Positions 16,237-27,700 of a stretch of DNA of 64,000 bases are shown in pieces. The stretch comes from Bacteroidota bacterium (GTDB lineage: Bacteria > Bacteroidota > Bacteroidia > Chitinophagales > CAIODY01): NCBI GenBank assembly GCA_046051225.1, contig JBJOOR010000007.1:87894-151893 (forward strand). The letters are read 5' to 3'. The position numbers and the translations under genes were made by a program. The notes below the pieces were generated by a model, which saw only the letters and a program-made list of their open reading frames with translations, searched no databases and was not told the origin of the DNA. Numbering within the stretch: the stretch's first letter is position 1; each line of letters begins with the position of its first letter.

Positions 16237-17688
16237 TTATTGATAATTTTTAAAAATAAATTTCGGTTTCAAAAATTTCGGAATCCATTTCATGGTGTAG
16301 AATTTATGGATAATAGAATCACGAGATAAGAATATCAAGGCATCTTGTCGGGCTTTATTTACCACCCACAATGCCACAGGAAACAACACAATTAATGGCA
16401 ACCAACACCCCAACCATACTGGCATTTTCATGCCTTCGGCAAATTTTTGTCCTGTCATATTTGCTACATGAAACACTACAAAAAATACAACAGCCACCAC
16501 CAAAGGCATACCCAAGCCGCCTTTACGAATAATAGCACCCAATGCACCACCCATAATAATTAAAAGTAAACAAGCCAACGAGTATGAAAATTTATGATGA
16601 ATTTCAATATCAAATCGAGCTACATTTTCTTTTGAATAGCCTACATCTCTACTAGTTGAACTAATATTTGAACGTACATCTTGTGCTATACTGAAAGCCT
16701 TTTCGGCTATTCTTGTTCTGTTTTTTTTAGGCAAGGATGCAAAAAAATCGGCAACAGGTTTTGATGATTTTACAACCTGTAAATTAGAATCGGGCAGATA
16801 ATTAAAATTATAAAATCTACTGATGTAATTATTCAAATAAGAATAGTACTGCATGCGTTGCTTAAAAATAGTATCTACTTGGCTATTCAGTTGTTTAATA
16901 TTCATCATTTGATAATGATTCTTAAACAAATTTTCATTAGTACGTTCAAATCTAAAACCCGATAAATCAAAATACTTTTTATACTCTTTAAAATCGCTAC
17001 GTACAAACTCGGCCGACTGGGTATTTTTTGGTGGCATATCTTGATAATGCGACCCATCTTTTAAAGTAATAATTAAAAATCGCTTATCGGCTGTAGTTAC
17101 CAATTCGCCTTGCTTTGCTACAATAATATTATCATTGCCTCTGCCACTTGTATGGTCATAAATCATTACATCGTGTATCGTTTTTCCATCTGCATCTTTC
17201 TTCGAAATTTTGATTGAATAGCCTTCAATTCCATTATTAAATTTTCCTTCTTTTATGCTTAATGATGGTTTACTATTTTGAATATCATATAATAAAGTAC
17301 CCGATTTTAAATTGGCAACTGGAATAATATAATTATTAAAAATAAATGCAAACAGCGATAATGATAAACCTGCAAAAACTATAGAACGCATAAATCTGAA
17401 CAATGAAATACCCGACGATTTGAATGCTGTAAGTTCTTGAAATTCGGCAAGGTTTCCCATCGTCATGATAGAAGCCAAAAGACATGCAAGCGGCAATGAA
17501 AGCGGAACAAGACTAGCAGATGTAAAAAATAAAAGTTTGGCAATTACCAATCCATCTAAATCTTTACCTGCTAAATCATCAATATACTTCCACACAAATT
17601 GCATTAAAAACACAAAAAGTGTAATAAAAAAAGTAGCAATAAAGGGTGGTATAAACGACCGTAAAATCAGCCAGTCTATTTTTTTCAT
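16237..17688 (-). CDS. LptF/LptG family LPS export permease
   Basis: KYIDDLAGK, ELTAFKSSGISL, RKGGLG; 3+3 TM layout. Confidence 0.9.
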   Translation of the reverse strand: MKKIDWLILRSFIPPFIATFFITLFVFLMQFVWKYIDDLAGKDLDGLVIAKLLFFTSASLVPLSLPLACLLASIMTMGNLAEFQELTAFKSSGISLFRFMRSIVFAGLSLSLFAFIFNNYIIPVANLKSGTLLYDIQNSKPSLSIKEGKFNNGIEGYSIKISKKDADGKTIHDVMIYDHTSGRGNDNIIVAKQGELVTTADKRFLIITLKDGSHYQDMPPKNTQSAEFVRSDFKEYKKYFDLSGFRFERTNENLFKNHYQMMNIKQLNSQVDTIFKQRMQYYSYLNNYISRFYNFNYLPDSNLQVVKSSKPVADFFASLPKKNRTRIAEKAFSIAQDVRSNISSTSRDVGYSKENVARFDIEIHHKFSYSLACLLLIIMGGALGAIIRKGGLGMPLVVAVVFFVVFHVANMTGQKFAEGMKMPVWLGCWLPLIVLFPVALWVVNKARQDALIFLSRDSIIHKFYTMKWIPKFLKPKFIFKNYQ

Positions 17689-17791
17689 GCTGAAAATTTA
17701 GTGCTGAAAGATACTACACAATCGCCAAACTTAAAATGATTATAAAATTGAAATTGATAATAAAGTATGAATAATATTTTATCGTTTTACA

Positions 17792-17845
17792 TTCGCAATC
17801 GGAGATTGCTGTCAGCCAAAGCGTAGTCGGAAACATACGCTTGTC
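17792..17845 (+). repeat. REP copy 1 (double hairpin, second stem degenerate)
   Basis: TTCGCAATC-GGA-GATTGCTGTCAGCCAAAGCGTAGTC-GGA-AACATACGCTTGTC. Confidence 0.9.
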
Positions 17846-17871
17846 AAATACACGTTTTTATACTATGTTTG
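17841..17871 (+). promoter_or_regulatory. Bacteroidota housekeeping-type promoter at REP1 end
   Basis: TTG-N20-TATGTTTG. Confidence 0.6.
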
Positions 17872-17875
17872 TTAA

Positions 17876-18355
17876 GTGATATTAAATAAACAAACTATAG
17901 TTTCTAAATCAATTCCTGTATTGGTACTATTAAACTTAGGAATACTAATACTTATTCTATTAAAAAAACTATTTTATAGTCCATCAATTAACATTCTCGA
18001 TTTACTTCTTTACATTATTTTTAATGTAATATTTTTTTATGGTATATATTTAAATTTAATATGGGTTTTAAAAAATAAAAAGGAAAAGAAATCTATAATT
18101 TTTAATTTATGCTATTTTGGATTTCAGATTTTTACAATTAAAATTTTTGGTATAATTTACTACATTGATACAACAATTAATTTGGGAATATTCCTAATTG
18201 AGAATAATAAAATTTGTGATTTTGGATATAATGTTAGGCTAATAAACTTTGCATATAGTTTTTATTTTACTAATGATACTAATAGTCTTTTAGGGATTAA
18301 TTTTTCGGCGTTAATTTTATTTGTAATCTTAAAATGGAATTTTAATAAAAAATGA
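17876..18355 (+). CDS. Orphan multi-TM membrane protein (cargo); start uncertain (GTG)
   Basis: 159-aa hydrophobic, very AT-rich ORF; stop 1 bp before REP2. Confidence 0.6.
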   Translation: MILNKQTIVSKSIPVLVLLNLGILILILLKKLFYSPSINILDLLLYIIFNVIFFYGIYLNLIWVLKNKKEKKSIIFNLCYFGFQIFTIKIFGIIYYIDTTINLGIFLIENNKICDFGYNVRLINFAYSFYFTNDTNSLLGINFSALILFVILKWNFNKK

Positions 18356-18356
18356 A

Positions 18357-18410
18357 CCCCGACAAGCGTAGTCTCCGACTACGCTTCTGCTGAAAGCAAT
18401 CTCCGATTGC
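18357..18410 (-). repeat. REP copy 2 (inverted)
   Basis: Reverse complement GCAATCGGAGATTGCTTTCAGCAGAAGCGTAGTCGGAGACTACGCTTGTCGGGG. Confidence 0.92.
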
Positions 18411-18419
18411 TATATTTAT

Positions 18420-18965
18420 TTACACAAAATCAATTTCAATCAAACTTTCTTCGCCTGCATAATTTGAAGCACTGCTGTATAAATAATGTTCGGGCTTTGA
18501 TACAATTCCAGCTCTTACAGGATTTTGATGAATGTAATTCAGCTTTTGCTGAATAAATTCATGCGAATACAATTCTTCAGCATGATTTTCATGAGTCCAG
18601 AATTGATAATTAGAATTTCTTACATGCTTAGCAGCATTAAATTTCATGCGATGCAATAGCCAATCTCGTCTGCTTTCAACGCCACTATTTTCAATTTCCA
18701 AAATAATATTTTTGGCTGTCCATTTTTTAAAATCACGAATCAAATCTGAAAGTTTTCCGTTTTTGCTTCGCATCATCACATGAATATGATTGCTCATAAT
18801 TACATAAGCAAACAGCTCCATTCCTTTTTCTTTTCGGCAATACTTAAAGCAATCTAATACAATATCTCGGTATGATTTTCTTGAAAATGCATCTACCCAA
18901 TCTACCACTGTAAACGTCATATAATATGCTGCATCTTGGTTATTAATTTGATACGCTGCCGACAT
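18420..18965 (-). CDS. REP-associated tyrosine transposase (RAYT/TnpA-REP, Y1 HUH)
   Basis: YMTFTVVDW, HUH motif YVIMSNHIH, QFW, catalytic-Tyr motif NYIHQNPVRAG, YSSA. Confidence 0.93.
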   Translation of the reverse strand: MSAAYQINNQDAAYYMTFTVVDWVDAFSRKSYRDIVLDCFKYCRKEKGMELFAYVIMSNHIHVMMRSKNGKLSDLIRDFKKWTAKNIILEIENSGVESRRDWLLHRMKFNAAKHVRNSNYQFWTHENHAEELYSHEFIQQKLNYIHQNPVRAGIVSKPEHYLYSSASNYAGEESLIEIDFV

Positions 18966-19045
18966 AATTTTTTTTGCTAAAATAATTATCTTAGCAAAAA
19001 TCAGTTTGTGTTTTTGCTAAATAATTTTAAAGTGATGTTTTTGTT

Positions 19046-19099
19046 TTCGCAATCGGAGATTGCTGTCAGCCAAAGCGTAGTCGGAGACTACGCTTGTCG
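19046..19099 (+). repeat. REP copy 3
   Basis: TTCGCAATCGGAGATTGCTGTCAGCCAAAGCGTAGTCGGAGACTACGCTTGTCG; both stems perfect. Confidence 0.92.
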
Positions 19100-19166
19100 A
19101 ATACACTTTTATATACTACGTTTGTCGGGGTTTGTCAAATACATTTTTTATACTACGTTTGTCGGG
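19094..19166 (+). promoter_or_regulatory. Two tandem ~37-bp REP-end-derived promoter units
   Basis: TTG-N20-TACGTTTG (19094-19124) and TTTG-N19-TACGTTTG (19131-19161). Confidence 0.65.
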
Positions 19167-19210
19167 AAAGGAATTAACATCACCAAAAGATTACAAACTT
19201 CAAAAACGAA

Positions 19211-19807
19211 ATGAAAATTTTATTCATTTGCTTACTTGTATCAATAAATAATATTTGTTGTTTTGCAAATACACATTCTAAAAGCAAGAATGAATTTACA
19301 AAAAGAATAGCTAAAAGTGTTGATACATTTATGATTGATGGATATTCCCCTTACTTATTGGTAAATGTATATGATTTTGAAAAGAAAGTTTCAACAGGAA
19401 CTATAATAGTTAATGGATCAAAAGTTTTCATATTTATTATGAAAAATTATTTCGATTCTATTGGAGTAAAATTTACAACAAGAAAATTTCGAAAAACATT
19501 CAAGAAAATCATTAACAATGACATGGCGTTGAATGTACACTCTTGGCAAATAAGAGATTTGTGTTTGTATGCCAGAGCAGGTTCATTAAATGATTTACCG
19601 TTGAATTGTGGGAATATTTCTGATTCATTTTATTGTCAGTTAAAACAATCAAGCACTGCTGAAATTAGGAAGAAATATTTTAATCAAAATAAAAGGTATA
19701 CTGGAAAGCTTAGGAACGAGGATTTTAACGCCCTTGTCAAATTCTTTTTTGATAATTTTATTTTGATTAATTATTTTGAAGAACTTGGATATGACGAATT
19801 GGAATGA
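19211..19807 (+). CDS. Orphan exported protein (cargo)
   Basis: 198-aa ORF with signal-like N-terminus MKILFICLLVS. Confidence 0.65.
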   Translation: MKILFICLLVSINNICCFANTHSKSKNEFTKRIAKSVDTFMIDGYSPYLLVNVYDFEKKVSTGTIIVNGSKVFIFIMKNYFDSIGVKFTTRKFRKTFKKIINNDMALNVHSWQIRDLCLYARAGSLNDLPLNCGNISDSFYCQLKQSSTAEIRKKYFNQNKRYTGKLRNEDFNALVKFFFDNFILINYFEELGYDELE

Positions 19808-19966
19808 TTTGTGTATTGACGAGAATACATGATATGAGTAGAAGCTCAGCTGAATCTGTCGTTTCATAGCTAAAACATTACAGAAGGAATTGAATTTCGA
19901 TGATTTGAGCTTTGAAATTAGATACTAAAATTTATTTGCTTTTTATCAAAGAATGTTTTTGTAAGA

Positions 19967-20305
19967 ATAACTCCAAAACCAATTGTTTCAAAACTTTTTT
20001 CGATTGAAATAGGTTCTAAACTAATTAATTCAAACTTTAAACTTGTTGAAAAAAGTTTGAAACTTTAAGAAATAACTTTTAAATCAATTATTCTGAAATC
20101 AAAACTAATAAGTTTTAAAATAAAACTTATTGGTTTAAGAGTTATTTCTAATGAAATTAAGTTTAAAGCTTAAAGAAAAACTTTTAAAATAATAAAAATA
20201 AAAGTTGTAGCTATTGTTCCAAAACTTTTTTCAATAGAAACAAAACTTAAACCTATTGAAACAGCTTTGAAAATTATAGTTTTACTAGCAGTGGCTTTTG
20301 TTTAA
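19967..20305. repeat. Degenerate 21-bp-period tandem repeat tract
   Basis: Near-identical 28-mers at 19982 and 20213 (231 = 11x21 bp apart); heptad pattern in translation with internal stops. Confidence 0.55.
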
Positions 20306-20385
20306 CTCTTAAATTCAAATCCCATAAGCATGCAAATTATAGATTCAGAATGGTGATCAACAATCACAGGTTCACTGCTACGGGG

Positions 20386-21117
20386 TTAATTTTTTAAATA
20401 AAATTCATAATTCAGAGTATCGCACTTCTCGAAATTATATTTGGTTGAGGATAATTTCCCAATTAGAGTTAAAATATTTAATCCACGTTTTTTTGTATTT
20501 AATAGTGTTGAATGCATATTTCTACAACCAAGGTCTTTGTAAGTAAATGAATACAAGTAGTCATCATTCAAATAAGCATCAAAATCAACTGAAAACCCAA
20601 ATGGATTAGCAAATGCAATTGAAAAGGGTTTAGGCAAATCTTTTCTTTCTATTGTGTTAGAATCAAATTCTGTAATCAAATAAAAAAACTTACCGAAGCA
20701 AGATATAGACCCATTTTTGTTGTCAATGTCAAAAATAACATGCCCGTGTTTATCCTTAAAATTATACTTTTTTAAAAAACCAATACTATCAAAACTATAG
20801 TAACTGTCAATTGGTAAATCATTGTTTATAGTATTAACTGCTTCTAATTTACCATTTAAATTAAAAAAGAAAATATAGCCATTATCTTTTCCAAGATCAT
20901 TACGAGATACAATATATTCAATTGAGCTGTCATTATGATAGGCAATATGTTTTTTGCATTTTAATAAGCTACTATCTCCAAATTTTTCTATCTCCCACTT
21001 GCACAAACTATTTTCCATCGAATCATATATCTTATTACACGAACTATTTTCGTTACCATGCTTTAGCTTACATGATGCGACAATAATTAAAGGTATAAAT
21101 AAAATTAAATAACGCAT
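20386..21117 (-). CDS. Orphan lipoprotein with MORN/YwqK-like segment (cargo)
   Basis: MRYLILFIPLIIVASC lipobox; NGYIFFFNLNGKLE..SYYSFDSIG repeat-like segment. Confidence 0.65.
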   Translation of the reverse strand: MRYLILFIPLIIVASCKLKHGNENSSCNKIYDSMENSLCKWEIEKFGDSSLLKCKKHIAYHNDSSIEYIVSRNDLGKDNGYIFFFNLNGKLEAVNTINNDLPIDSYYSFDSIGFLKKYNFKDKHGHVIFDIDNKNGSISCFGKFFYLITEFDSNTIERKDLPKPFSIAFANPFGFSVDFDAYLNDDYLYSFTYKDLGCRNMHSTLLNTKKRGLNILTLIGKLSSTKYNFEKCDTLNYEFYLKN

Positions 21118-21316
21118 ATTAGTATTGAAATTTTGTCGGTTCACTAAATCCACATTTTCTATATTAGTATTACAGCAAATTATTGATGAAATTAGTATTA
21201 AGGTTAGTACTAAAATTCATTTTTTATACTCAATGCCTGTCTTTATTATGATCAATAATTCCCTTAAACCCTCCTGATTTGTGTGTATGCTTTCCACCAC
21301 CACTTGTCTTATGATT

Positions 21317-21373
21317 CCCCGACAAGCATAGTCTCCGACTACGCTTTAGCTGAAAGCAATCTCTGATTGCGAA
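21317..21373 (-). repeat. REP copy 4 (inverted)
   Basis: CCCCGACAAGCATAGTCTCCGACTACGCTTTAGCTGAAAGCAATCTCTGATTGCGAA, 1 bp from the helicase stop codon. Confidence 0.9.
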
Positions 21374-21374
21374 C

Positions 21375-24300
21375 TTATCCTATCACCACCACTTCATCCG
21401 TTTTTTCTGGTGCACGGTTCACTCTATTTGTTTTCACAAAATTACACCATTGGCATTTTTCATCATTACAACCTTGTGCAAATTCATGGTTCATTATTTT
21501 GGTGTACGAATCTTTTATTTGCGTTCTAACAATTTTCACATCATCAGGGGTAATAATAACTTTATGCCTTACAAAGGCTTTTGTTTCTTCATTTTTTTCA
21601 ATAAAATCAAATATCCCTTCTACCATTTTCCAGGTATTGAATGGATAATTATCAATCAATAATTTATAAAAAATCATTTGTCGCCAATAGTCGCCGCCAT
21701 TAGGTTGTTTATCAGTAGGTGGCGTTAAACTATCTTTAATGCTGTGTTTGGCATTGCCCGTTTTATAATCAATCACGGTGCAATTGTTTCCATCAAATTC
21801 TATTTTATCAATTTTTCCTTTTAGTGGCACACCATCAATTTCAATATTCGGAATCATTTTTTCAATGCTCACCATTTTATTAAATGTGTTGATGTAATGA
21901 TTATAATATTCGGTTAATGATTTTCTGCCCAATTCCATTCTTCTTGGAAATTGTTTTTCGGTAAAAGCTTCTTCTTGCTTATGCATACTTTTTTCAAAAT
22001 TCTTAATCACTTGTTCTAAAGGCGCAAACTCTTTTTTATCATTTATTTGCATATCCTTAAACAACATTTCTAAAGCATAATGCACCGCATTACCAAATGC
22101 CAAACTATCATTGGGTGCCGATGGCACTTGCAAAATTGTTTCATAATAAAATGCCACAGGGCAACGCAAATATTTATTTAAAGCCGATGCACTTAACGAG
22201 AAATTTTTTAATCGTTGTTCTAAAAATTCTTTCTTCAATACTTCAATATTTACGGGTGGGTTGGCTTCAAACGACCATCTAATTTGTTCCATCACCGTAG
22301 CTTCATCTACACTTGTTTTTTCGAACACACATTTATCCATTATTTCAGCAATAAATAAAGTTGCTGTTTTCCCTTTTTCTTTTGCATCCTTTACTGGATA
22401 AGAAATTTGCAAATATTTTTTAGCCCGTGTTATTGCCACATAAAATAATCTTCGGCTCGATTCTTCTGCATTTGTTTCATCATCGCCCACTAATGATTCA
22501 GGCATTTTGTAATGACCATTTTGCCCACGTTTTTTCTCCCAAAAATCGTTGGTACAACCCATCAAAAAAACATACTCAAACTCTAATCCTTTTGACGAAT
22601 GTGCTGTTATAAAATTCACACCGTTTTCTTGCGCTACTATTTTATTGATAGGCAGTTCAATGCTTTCGCCATGCATTTCATCCAGCATTGTCAAAAATTC
22701 TTTCACATGCATTCGTGGTTTTTTAGCACATTCTTCTTTAATAAAATCGAAAAAAGAATTGAGCACTTGCATATCCCAAATTCGTGTTGGCGAATTCAAA
22801 ATATATTCAACAATACCACTATCGTAAATAATATTTTCGAACAACATGGGCAAAGTAAGTTGTTGCATTTCGGTTAACCATTTATTCAAACTATTGCCCA
22901 ATTGAATTATTTTATTTTGCGATGAAAGATTCAAAGTGCTTATTTCTAAAGCATTATCTAATACCAAGCGCCATTGTTTTTTTTCTGTTTTTGGTTTTTG
23001 CGCTACATGAAAACTAAGCAATGCAATATCAACAGGATTGATTTGCAAAGCAGGATAATGCATCAAATGAAATAAAATTTCTTCGCCGCTAAATGCTTTG
23101 CTGGTTTCCTTTTGCAGATATTCTAACACATTTACAAAATAATTTACCAACGGAATTTTTAATAAATCTTCTCGTTTTTTTACGTTGTATGGAATGCGTT
23201 TTTTTTCTAATAATTTAATGATGTTGGCTGCTTGTTTATGTTGCGAATACAACACTGCCACTTCCGATAAATTTTTTCCTTCGTTGTGCAATTTTTCTAA
23301 TTGCATTACAATATCAGCCTCTTCATGAAAACTATTGTAATATTCTACAATCTTTGGTGCTGGCGATTCTTCGGCTATTATTTTAGGATGAGATGCTACC
23401 AAATTTTTGTCCAACACTAATCCTTCTTTTTTTATAAGATGAATTAATCGTTGTTTATTTTTATCAATAGTTGCTTTGGATGCATCTAATATTTTTTGTG
23501 TGCTGCGGTAATTATTGGTAAGTACAATGGCTTGAATATTATCTTCAAAACCTTCATAAAAACTTACAATATTATCTAATCGTGCACCTTGAAATTCGTA
23601 GATGCTTTGGTCGTCATCGCCTACAATAAATACGTTTGCATCTTGCCCCCAATAACTAATTAGCAATTCTAAAATTTCTTTCTGTGAGCCGCTTGTATCC
23701 TGAAATTCATCTACTAACACATACTGAAATCGTTCTTGATATTCCAACAACAACAATTCATTTTCTTTAAATGCTTTTATCACCCACAATATCATATCAT
23801 CGTAATCATATCTTGCTCGGGCAACCATTTTAGCATCAAACTTTTCAAACAATGCAGCCGCATCTTTTAGCAAATTTAATTTATCAACTTCTACCTGAAT
23901 TTTATCCGTTCTTACATCACCTTTTTTAAATTCGCCAGTAGCACGTTTGCAAATGTATTCATCCTTCAAAGGCAATTCGGCAATGTGTTTGTCAATGGCT
24001 TCTATAATTTTTTCAGCTGTCCAATCTTCTTTTTTCATCATCGAAAAAAGATTTTTTAATCGTTTAGCTTCATAATAAATATCACCTTTTAATTTGCGTA
24101 AGCTATGTCCTTCGGGCAATTCATCTAATAATTGATGATAAATTTCAGCCGTTTCTAAATCGCTTACAGGTTCGCTTTCTCGTTTCAAAAAAAACTGTGG
24201 ATGATTTTGAATCACATCATTACAAAACGCATGAAAAGTATGAATATTCACTTTGTGTGCCACAGGCCCAATGAAATCCATCAAGCGTTTACGCATGGCA

Positions 24301-24728: not shown

Positions 24729-27700
24729 ATGAAAAAAATAATTACAGCCGTAATGCTTATTTTTTGGGCATTTACACTAACTGCTCAACCGCAACGATTG
24801 AAAGAATTTTCCAACGATTCTACCATTCCACAATGGGTGAAAATGATGTATGCACAAAAGCCCAATATTGGCGATGTAGTTGCATCTCACGATGCTTATT
24901 ACAAAACGCATCCGTTCAAAAAAACGGGTTATACGCAATACTACAAACATTTTTTGCAACGCATTTCTCGTGATTACAACGGTACAGTTTTCGGTGAACC
25001 GATGACAGACGAAATGAAAAAAAATCAAGAAGATTATTTGCAGAAAATAAAACAAAATAAAATTGGGGTGAGTTCAAAAAGTAAATCAGCCACATCCAAT
25101 TGGCGTTGTTTAGGTCCATTTGATTTTGATAAAGAAAGTGCCAGTGCCAGCTACGCAGCAGGCGCAGCGCATGTTTACACGGTTGAGCAATCGATGAGCA
25201 ACACCAATATTTTATATGCAGGAACTGCCAATGCAGGGCTTTGGAAAACAACAGATAAAGGCGCACATTGGACAGGCTGCACCATCAACGATATGATTGC
25301 CGAAGTGTATGCTTTAGAAATTGATTTCAGCAATAGCAACACAGTTTATTTCAGCGATGGACAAAAAATTTATAAAACAACTAATGGAGGACAAACTTTC
25401 AATGCCACAGGCAGCACAGCTTTTCAGAATGCAGCACATTATACTCGTGATTTAAAAATGAATCCGCAAAACAATCAAGTGCTGTTAGCTGCTTGCGATA
25501 ATGGTTTGTTCAGAACTGATGATGCAGGGCAAAATTGGAATTTAATTCAAAGCGGTGCATGGCAAGAATTGGAAGTGAAAACTAACGACACTTTAATTTG
25601 GTACGCAGTGTTGCAAACTGGCTCTGTTACACAGTTTTACAAATCAACAGATGGTGGCAGAACTTTTTCAATCAGAACAAATGGTTGGCCTTTACCAACT
25701 GGAAGTGATGAAAATAAAAGAGCAGAAATTGCTGTAACGCCTGCAGCGCCTAATATTGTGTATGCTTATGCAACTGGTGCTGCAAATGGAGGAAGTGGTT
25801 TGTATGGTATTTATGTCAGTCATGATGCAGGTGAATCATGGACTTTTAAATGCTGCGGAGGCAGCCCTGGCGGCGTTCCTAACGCTTCAACCAATATCAA
25901 TATTTGCGCTTGGGCAAAAGATGGCAGTGATGATGGCGGACAATATTATTATGATTTAGCATTAGCAGTTTCGCCGATTGATAGCAATGAAGTGCATTGC
26001 GGCGCAGTGAATCATTGGGGGAGTAAAGATGGCGGCAACACTTTTACTTGTCCATCTAATTGGAGTGAATCGCATAATGTAAATTATGTGCATGCCGATA
26101 ATCATGATTTTAATTTTTATGGAAATGATTTTTGGATGGCATGCGATGGTGGAATTTTTTATTCAAAAACTTTTGGCGACACGATTGACAGAAGAATGTA
26201 TGGCATTGCAGGCTCCGACTTTTGGGGCTTTGGAATGGGCTACTGGAACGGCTCGGATGTGTTTGTTGGCGGTGCTTATCACAATGGAACTTTGATTAAA
26301 GACAATAATGTTTACAACAATGGTTGGGTGAGTGCAATGGGTGGCGACAATATTTTAGGCAATGTAAATTATGGCAATGAGCGACAAATATTTTGTGATT
26401 ATGGGAAATTCAAATTGAGTGGAAACCGCAGCATTGGCTACTTTCAATTGCCTAACGGAATGCAACCTTCTTCATCGTATGTGGTGGGTGAAGATGCTGA
26501 AATGGAATACGACCCAGCTTGTTACAACACAATTTTTATGGGCAATGATAGCAGTATTTGGAAATCGAATGATGGTGGCGCAAACTTTACAGCATTACAT
26601 AAATTTACTGATGGCACAGTTGCTTCCATCGAAATTGCATCGGATAGAAAAACAATTTATGCTTGCACTTTTTCAAGTTGGTGGAGCAACAAACATCTCT
26701 ACAAATCAATAGATACGGGCATTACATGGGTGAACATCACACCATCCAACGCTTTACTCAACAATACTTTTTATGCGCCATTTGATATTGCTGTTGGCGA
26801 TAGTGCTAATCAAGTTTGGATTGCACGAACGATTATGAGTTCGACTTATCCGAACTTAAATGGTTACAAAGTTTATAAATCGAATGATGGCGGAAACACT
26901 TGGACGAACTACACCACACCAACTTTGAATGGTGAATATCCAACCAATATTATTTATCAAAAAGGTAGTAATGGTGGTGTTTATTTGGGCACACGAAGAG
27001 CAGTTTATTATCGTAATAACACGATGAATGATTGGCAATTGTTTAATGATAGTTTGCCTGCTGTAACTTTTTCAACGCAATTAATTATCAATTACAAAAA
27101 TCAAAAAGTGTATGAAGGAACGAACAGAAGTGTGTATGGTTGCGACTTGTACGAAAGTGGCTTTGTGCCCGTTGCTCAAATTTCTGTTGATAAACAAACA
27201 TCCGAATGTCTTCGTGATACATTTTATTTTGTTGACCATTCTTCATTAAGCAATCAAAATCCAACTTGGAATTGGAGCTTTCCAGGCGGCACTCCATCGT
27301 CATCAAATTTGCGTTCGCCGAAAGTTGTTTATCACAATCCAGGCAAATACAATGTGAATTTAACAGTGAGTGATGTGAATGGAACGAATGCACAAACCAT
27401 CAATAATTTTATCAGCATCAGCGATAATTGTTCGGTAGATAGTATTCCGGGTAATGCCTTACAACTCAATGGTAATGATGCTTCGGCGGCTATCGAGCCA
27501 TTTAATTTTTCAACCAACACTTTAACTTTAACAGCTTGGGTGAAACCAAATGCAACGCAACATGATTATGAAGGATTGGTTTTTATGAGAGGAAAAAACA
27601 CGGCAGATGGATTGAGTTTGATGCACGATTTAGAATTGCGTTATCATTGGCAAAACAATAATTGGTGGTGGAGCAGTGGATTATATTTAACCGCCAATCA

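Follow-up and report, generated by a model that had tools for sequence, protein, structure and literature searches.

REPs and RAYTs (REP-associated tyrosine transposases, Y1/HUH) are usually discussed as terminators, stabilisers of mRNA, and selfish or domesticated repeats. In integrons, the Pc promoter lies beside the recombinase gene and points away from it, towards small gene cassettes of unknown function, and the insertion sequences of Bacteroides carry promoters. The closest described relatives of the locus analyzed here are the REPtrons, in which REPs or REPINs accompany a RAYT (TnpA-REP) gene; in excerpts of the reports on them (PMC3116915, PMC3337134, PMC3733652), as in this locus, inverted hairpin repeats stand on either side of a Y1/HUH gene, further copies of them are spread through intergenic DNA, for the most part beside gene 3′ ends, and a GTAG word occurs in the repeat. 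The Bacteroidetes appear in the excerpts of PMC3733652 only with CGTC repeats that have no transposase. Small repeats with a promoter at one end are described in excerpts of PMC2649163, on the Correia repeat-enclosed elements of Neisseria, and excerpts of PMC6382973 describe promoters that face outward from MITEs and insertion sequences. A literature search returned no paper that gives RAYT-associated REPs a function as promoters or that describes two-hairpin REPs in Bacteroidota; the words promoter and Bacteroidetes are absent from the main text of a RAYT survey, and supplementary figures on RAYT taxonomy (bioRxiv 10.1101/119735) might list Bacteroidota RAYTs.

Here we analyze a stretch of 64,000 nt (the window) from a Bacteroidota genome of 3.3 Mb and 33% GC, designated G000; the TAnnTTTG promoter box of this genome and the T9SS tail domains of its relatives are Bacteroidota traits. 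Judged by its anatomy, the locus belongs to the REP/RAYT kind, with unusual features. Unlike the repeats of REPtrons, as these are presented in the excerpts cited above, the REP of the window is made of two hairpins and is low-copy (about 13), its GTAG lies inside a stem and not in an unpaired 5′ tag, and its family has variable 3′ tail modules, including a promoter-like unit. Our main reading, to which we assign a probability of about 0.55, is that this unit is a REP tail module acting as an outward promoter.

The transposase gene of the locus matches Pfam Y1_Tnp (E 1.6e-6) and NCBIfam REP_Tyr_transpos (97.8 bits, cut-off 80), and the HIH motif is visible in its translation; these matches place it in the RAYT subclass of Y1/HUH transposases. 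A search of PDB sequences with the protein gave no match. Two further Y1 transposase genes in the genome are both of the ordinary IS200 kind. The RAYT gene is bracketed by the inverted two-hairpin repeats REP2 and REP3, with their heads towards the gene, and the anatomy of the REP comprises hairpin 1 (GCAATCnGAGATTGC), hairpin 2 (AAGCGTAGTCGGAGACTACGCTT) and a tail, GTCGGGG. The outer ends of the resulting block (18357-19166) read CCCCGAC...GTCGGG, and a simpler reading of the layout is that it consists of this block, the RAYT gene with its two inverted REPs, and of two solo REPs nearby (Table 1). The REP copies of the genome are dispersed extragenically on 7 contigs, and their number is low for a REP family. 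RAYT homologues 54-62% identical to the protein were kept from 80 Bacteroidota loci, and 22 of the 83 RAYT loci examined, the window's own locus counted, have CGTAGTC..GACTACG hairpins. On its own (-) strand, the region upstream of the RAYT gene (18966-19048) holds no exact TAnnTTTG; the gene may be poorly expressed or may use a degenerate box. Hairpin 1 of REP2 followed by ATATTTATTT (18395-18411, +) constitutes the sole terminator-like site in 17500-21500 and lies directly downstream of ORF159.

Table 1. Positions in the window of the RAYT gene, the REPs, the unit copies and the open reading frames between the REPs
Feature	Position	Strand	Remarks
REP1 core	17795-17845	+	Hairpin 1 GCAATCGGAGATTGC at 17795-17809, linker, degenerate hairpin 2 at 17819-17842; ssDNA fold
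Unit copy after REP1	17841-17872	+	TTG 17841-17843, N20, TATGTTTG 17864-17871; member of the unit family
ORF159	17876-18355	+	Hydrophobic ORFan, 18% GC, no in-frame ATG
REP2, short-tail form (..GCTTGTCGGGG)	18357-18410	-	Flanks the 3′ end of the RAYT gene; fold z-score -5.4
RAYT gene (REP-associated tyrosine transposase, Y1/HUH)	18420-18965	-	Pfam, NCBIfam, HIH motif
REP3 core	19049-19099	+	Hairpin 1 at 19049-19063, perfect 10-bp hairpin 2 at 19073-19095; flanks the 5′ end of the RAYT gene
Unit A after REP3	19094-19130	+	TTG 19094-19096, N20, TACGTTTG 19117-19124
Unit B after REP3	19131-19166	+	TTTG from 19131, TTG 19132-19134, N19, TACGTTTG 19154-19161
ORF198	19211-19807	+	ORFan downstream of the tandem units
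ORF255	20386-21153	-	ORFan; a separate gene caller gives a 210-aa form; faced by unit-less REP4
REP4, short-tail form	21320-21373	-	Adjoins the 3′ end of an AddA/UvrD-like helicase gene

The unit, 35-37 bp long, is present on both forward REPs of the window, in a single copy after REP1 and in two copies after REP3, and on neither of the reverse REPs (REP2, REP4). Tandem Repeats Finder reports the pair after REP3 (19094-19166) with period 37, 1.9 copies and 91% matches, and the box of unit B ends 49 nt before the ATG of ORF198. The unit coordinates and spacings given in the preliminary description proved exact when re-found by direct reading and by script, and the C>T difference that it had noted between the REP tail (GACTACGCTTGTCGGGG) and the unit tail (TACTACGTTTGTCGGGG), which completes TAnnTTTG and so creates the -7 box, is seen in the sequences. 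When the strand is folded as single-stranded DNA, stable structure is confined to the two REP hairpins, and the unit is unstructured.

Six other REP copies in the genome end in GCTTGTCAAATACAAACTACGATGGTCTGGGG, a tail that differs from the unit in missing an 8-nt T-rich insert and in having ATGG where the unit has TTTG. Because this shorter tail is homologous to it, the unit is a variant of the existing REP tail, as the preliminary description had proposed, and not an appended promoter cassette. Following an AT-rich spacer, the 3′ half of the unit is a second copy of the 3′ arm of hairpin 2 and its tail (ACTACGYTTGTCGGGG). Of 326 hairpin readings, 20 have a half-copy of this kind (3′ arm plus tail, full hairpins being left out) after hairpin 2, against 1/326 in reversed and 2/326 in shuffled controls; these half-copies come from 14 of the 86 loci covered (80 RAYT loci of other Bacteroidota and six from relatives). 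Under a stricter test, in which the 7-mer had to be exact and the 9-bp hairpin perfect, the signal was weak, with half-copies in 6 of 138 hairpin readings downstream versus 10 upstream, most of them whole second hairpins. The kind of half-site duplication that would lie behind the unit is seen cleanly in a related genus of the same family (G010, contig C271), where one REP (L101 2268-2360) carries four tandem 15-bp copies of GACTACGCTTAACGA and another (L101 2102-2150) two head-to-tail copies of the same 3′ arm and tail. Among REP copies, variation of the tail begins right after GCTTGTC. The REP4 of the window (21320-21373) and its orthologue in the closest relative, G004 (~90% identity; contig C146, L094 2596-2680), which carries a unit and likewise adjoins the helicase gene, have their sequence in common up to this word and are wholly divergent thereafter. 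We infer that the point at which the RAYT cuts or joins would lie right after GCTTGTC.

The unit is proposed to have arisen as a tail module of the low-copy REP family that belongs to the RAYT gene (18420-18965): a putative duplication would have repeated the 3′ arm and tail of the REP itself (ACTACGYTTGTCGGGG) beyond an AT-rich spacer of ~20 nt and put one tail TTG ~28 nt upstream of the second tail. A C>T change in the second tail would then yield TAnnTTTG, and the outcome would be a consensus Bacteroidota sigma-A promoter (-33 TTG, N17-22, -7 TAnnTTTG) pointing away from the REP. In Flavobacterium psychrophilum the -7 box occupies positions -12 to -5, according to excerpts of PMC9723704; on that basis, outward firing would be predicted to start near 17876, 19129 and 19166. 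Some copies would apparently have been retained as promoters after loss of the hairpins. We infer both transcription from the unit and the route of its duplication from the arrangement of the sequence; the anatomy, the homology to the REP tail, the match to the motif, the pattern of conservation and the positional bias are direct observations.

With TAnnTTTG and a TTG at about 19-21 nt, the unit has the form of a sigma-A promoter, and the Bacteroidota promoter match put forward in the preliminary description agrees with a grammar in use by the unit's own genome. Over 2573 ORF-based genes, TAnnTTTG peaks 20-29 nt upstream of the ATG (195 sense vs 24 antisense), and the spacer to TTG has its peaks at N20 (7.2%) and N19 (5.8%). 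The full motif (N18-21) is found close upstream of co-oriented genes in 165 cases, versus 18 in which it faces convergent genes, so that intergenic sites of that kind can be said usually to act as promoters. The unit family comprises 11 copies across two genomes, in all of which TA..TTTG is preserved and preceded by a TTG at a spacing of 17-22 nt (N20 in 7 of them). Eight of the nine promoter-critical (-33/-7) columns are invariant, against 8/24 of the others between the boxes (one-sided Fisher p=0.006, the Fisher tests being overstated here by the fact that the unit copies are related and were found via similarity). Apart from those of the units, no exact -7 box precedes ORF159 or ORF198 on the strand of these genes. 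In G000, a co-oriented start follows within 70 nt at three of the four unit loci (four of four if the MFS transporter gene starts at a conserved in-frame TTG), versus none of the 11 unit-less REPs (p=0.009); for orientation alone, co-orientation is seen in 4/4 unit loci versus 4/11 unit-less REPs (p=0.051). In the genome-wide comparison of REPs that the preliminary description had suggested, the units of G000 lie at the 5′ ends of genes and the unit-less REPs do not; REP4 faces a sense ORF and has no unit.

Other observations point away from a promoter. Within the window, TTG-N19/20-TAnnTTTG occurs 7 times, which is the chance level (6.66 ± 2.64 in 200 first-order Markov simulations); what exceeds chance is the finding of three of the seven occurrences inside one repeated unit, not the bare count of the motif. 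The 60 nt around the boxes of the three window units have position-weight log-odds of -0.9, -5.4 and -5.4, corresponding to percentiles 13, 5 and 5 in the distribution for promoter-proximal boxes and close to the median of intragenic ones. The boxes of these units have G at the second n, a base seen in 6% of real boxes, and their flanks are G+C-rich; the A/T-rich flanks and preferred degenerate bases of a typical extended sigma-A context are not those of the window units. The conserved TA..TTTG overlaps the arm/tail motif of the REP, and its invariance may therefore serve the transposase and not sigma-A. The 5′ flanks of 47 other RAYT loci show no excess of -7 boxes that point outward (7 vs 21 towards the RAYT), so that any promoter role would be specific to this lineage. 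As a separate observation, the whole window contains 89 TAnnTTTG on both strands versus 120.9 ± 10.4 in dinucleotide shuffles, a modest depletion that would fit selection against stray -7 boxes. A scan for sigma-70-type promoters was at chance level (30 vs 24.9 ± 5.5).

The orientation of neighboring genes in the closest relative bears on the same question. Occurrence of the unit irrespective of the orientation of the downstream gene had been set down in the preliminary description as grounds for rejecting the promoter, and such occurrence is seen in part: three G004 copies, at two loci, face convergent 3′ ends. One of these copies, on contig C14, lies between convergent GDP-mannose dehydratase and T9SS-tail genes; the other two (C146:725 and C146:907) point at the 3′ end of a 180-aa gene. 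Taking both genomes together, ~6/8 independent unit loci are co-oriented with the gene downstream, which is not significant versus 0.5.

Of 11 family genomes put to a strict pattern search, two, G000 and G004, had the unit, three times each, and the reversed-pattern control gave nothing. A profile search of G000 added two solo copies without hairpins (contig C5 27646-27681 and contig C11 16259-16298), and a sequence-only model run over seven genomes of the genus returned, at E<1e-6, the 11 copies of the family, five in G000 and six in G004. Weaker matches to this model, in G003, G005 and G001 and two in G004, fall inside ORFs and were dropped as chance. A pattern scan of metagenomes gave at least 119 stretches; among the matches listed none was REP-linked, 105 belonged to a single unrelated 27-nt sequence that comes in two variants (77 + 28) and the rest were chance-like. 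Four copies in all are hairpin-less and solo (C5 and C11 in G000, C99 and C145 in G004), and such copies lie 24-60 nt upstream of genes. The one before the MFS transporter gene common to both genomes is nearly identical in the two, although its flanks barely align; the orthologues of this gene in four more distant genomes of the genus (G001, G003, G005, G006) have no unit upstream and no exact -7 box within 200 nt. The other solo units lie upstream of a membrane-protein gene and of a G004 gene. Other repeats were noted in the vicinity of unit copies. On contig C5 of G000 (27542-27600; L230 242-300) there is a terminator-like hairpin with a T-run (AAAAAAGCCTCATCCGAATGGATGAGGCTTTTTTT), itself a dispersed repeat with similar copies in at least six other places in G000 and several in G004, on both strands, and on contig C146 of G004 (L094 780-900) three short hairpins of another repeat type (e.g. 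TGTCGATTTCAAATCGACA) stand between two unit-bearing REP remnants.

The three open reading frames between the REPs (ORF159, ORF198 and ORF255) are low-GC and matched only themselves among 5.8 billion proteins; searches of the inter-REP ORFs against Pfam, NCBIfam and PADLOC gave nothing above noise. ORF159 opens after a TAA (17873-17875) and ends 1 nt before REP2, thus filling exactly the gap between the REP1 unit and REP2. The start predicted for that unit, ~17876, coincides with the GTG of ORF159 and would make a leaderless GUG mRNA; an in-frame TTG ~45 nt downstream is an alternative start for the ORF. Beyond the orthologous REP4, G004 has three different unknown genes with inward-facing units on both sides, whatever the orientation of the genes. 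The lptFG side is not syntenic, G004 having unrelated genes there, and the boundaries of an island are consequently not definable by comparison. The REPs on this evidence mark a variable spot bounded at the REP tail, with no sign of REP-bounded movement.

The account that competes most directly with a promoter role takes the unit for a structural by-product of the REP/RAYT system, a duplicated 3′ half-site and tail, perhaps at the point of cleavage or joining after TTGTC, with a promoter match that is fortuitous in AT-rich DNA and involves no meaningful transcription. Half-site and tail duplications do recur in G+C-richer relatives, where they are unlike promoters, and both the variation of tails and the difference between the REP4s of G000 and G004 start right after GCTTGTC. 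The poor promoter-context scores of the window units, the chance-level motif count of the window and the three G004 copies pointing at gene ends speak for the same account. It is opposed by the ~9-fold excess of intergenic perfect -7 boxes at the preferred spacing upstream of co-oriented genes (165 vs 18), by the conservation pattern, in which the promoter-critical columns are the most conserved, and by the positional contrast with unit-less REPs. The shorter tail, moreover, has neither the spacing nor the box, so that two separate changes point towards the promoter consensus, and solo units without hairpins have persisted at distances of 24-60 nt ahead of genes. We consider this by-product account a possibility, though a doubtful one. 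A further explanation, which we rank as the least probable of those considered, sees in the unit an independent miniature repeat of ~28-35 bp with TTGYYR direct repeats, inserting at TTGTC-like sites of which REP tails are merely the commonest. The four solo copies without hairpins and the TTGTCR-like words that bound every copy on both sides in the alignments agree with it, but the 3′ half of the unit is the REP arm and tail itself, the shorter homologous tail is integral to six REP copies, an element so small has no known means of moving, and tandem duplication yields direct repeats anyway. No pair of empty and filled sites was found for the unit.

A more ambitious model, advanced in the preliminary description, holds that pairs of REPs capture promoterless cargo genes, for which the element supplies integron-like Pc promoters, with the number of tandem copies tuning expression. 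Low-GC ORFans do lie between REPs with inward-pointing tails, in the window and in G004, ORF159 fills the gap between REP1 and REP2 to within 1-4 nt, and the genes that adjoin the orthologous REP4 differ between G000 and G004. None of the ORFs has a homologue elsewhere, and no cassette is thus seen in two contexts; with such homologues lacking for all three inter-REP ORFs among 5.8 billion proteins, the mobility or capture of these ORFs, and with it the notion of captured, otherwise promoterless cargo, is left unsupported. Also against the model are the units on both inward-facing tails of G004 whatever the gene orientation, the sense ORF that REP4 faces with no unit, the absence of an integrase and of an attC-like system, the loss of synteny on the lptFG side, which is simply broken in G004, and the service of solo units to ordinary chromosomal genes. 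We therefore judge the model very unlikely. An integron-like cassette system was considered as a candidate and rejected: the sole recombinase at the locus is the HUH/Y1 RAYT, and the inter-REP ORFs are without homologues in other contexts. Improbable too is a wider synthesis in which the REP tail of a RAYT/REP system would have evolved into a portable sigma-A promoter, pairs of REPs with inward tails would bracket and express newly acquired ORFans, and hairpin-less units would be domesticated promoters of core genes, giving an HUH counterpart of the integron layout of Pc plus cassettes.

If the unit fires, as in our main reading of a REP tail module acting as an outward promoter, one duplication and a single C>T change would have turned a transposase recognition tail into a promoter, and the resulting promoter module would have been reused upstream of ordinary genes. 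This would constitute, in a phylum whose promoters are unusual, a concrete case of the regulatory exaptation of a REP. A silent unit would be an ordinary variant of the REP tail.

Set beside the integron, the locus bears a likeness of layout only, in that a promoter-like unit beside the RAYT gene points away from it towards small unknown ORFs; unlike an integron, the locus lacks an IntI integrase as well as attI and attC, and nothing marks the ORFs as cassettes. The resemblance to the Correia elements, MITEs and insertion sequences, as these are presented in the excerpts cited above, would lie in a small mobile repeat carrying or creating a terminal promoter directed into the neighboring gene; in the window, the promoter motif lies at the REP end, and TTGYYR words bound the unit. 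In contrast to those elements, the putative promoter is here the tail of a REP, with -33 and -7 boxes of the Bacteroidota sigma-A type, and its box would stem from the duplication of the repeat's own arm and tail.
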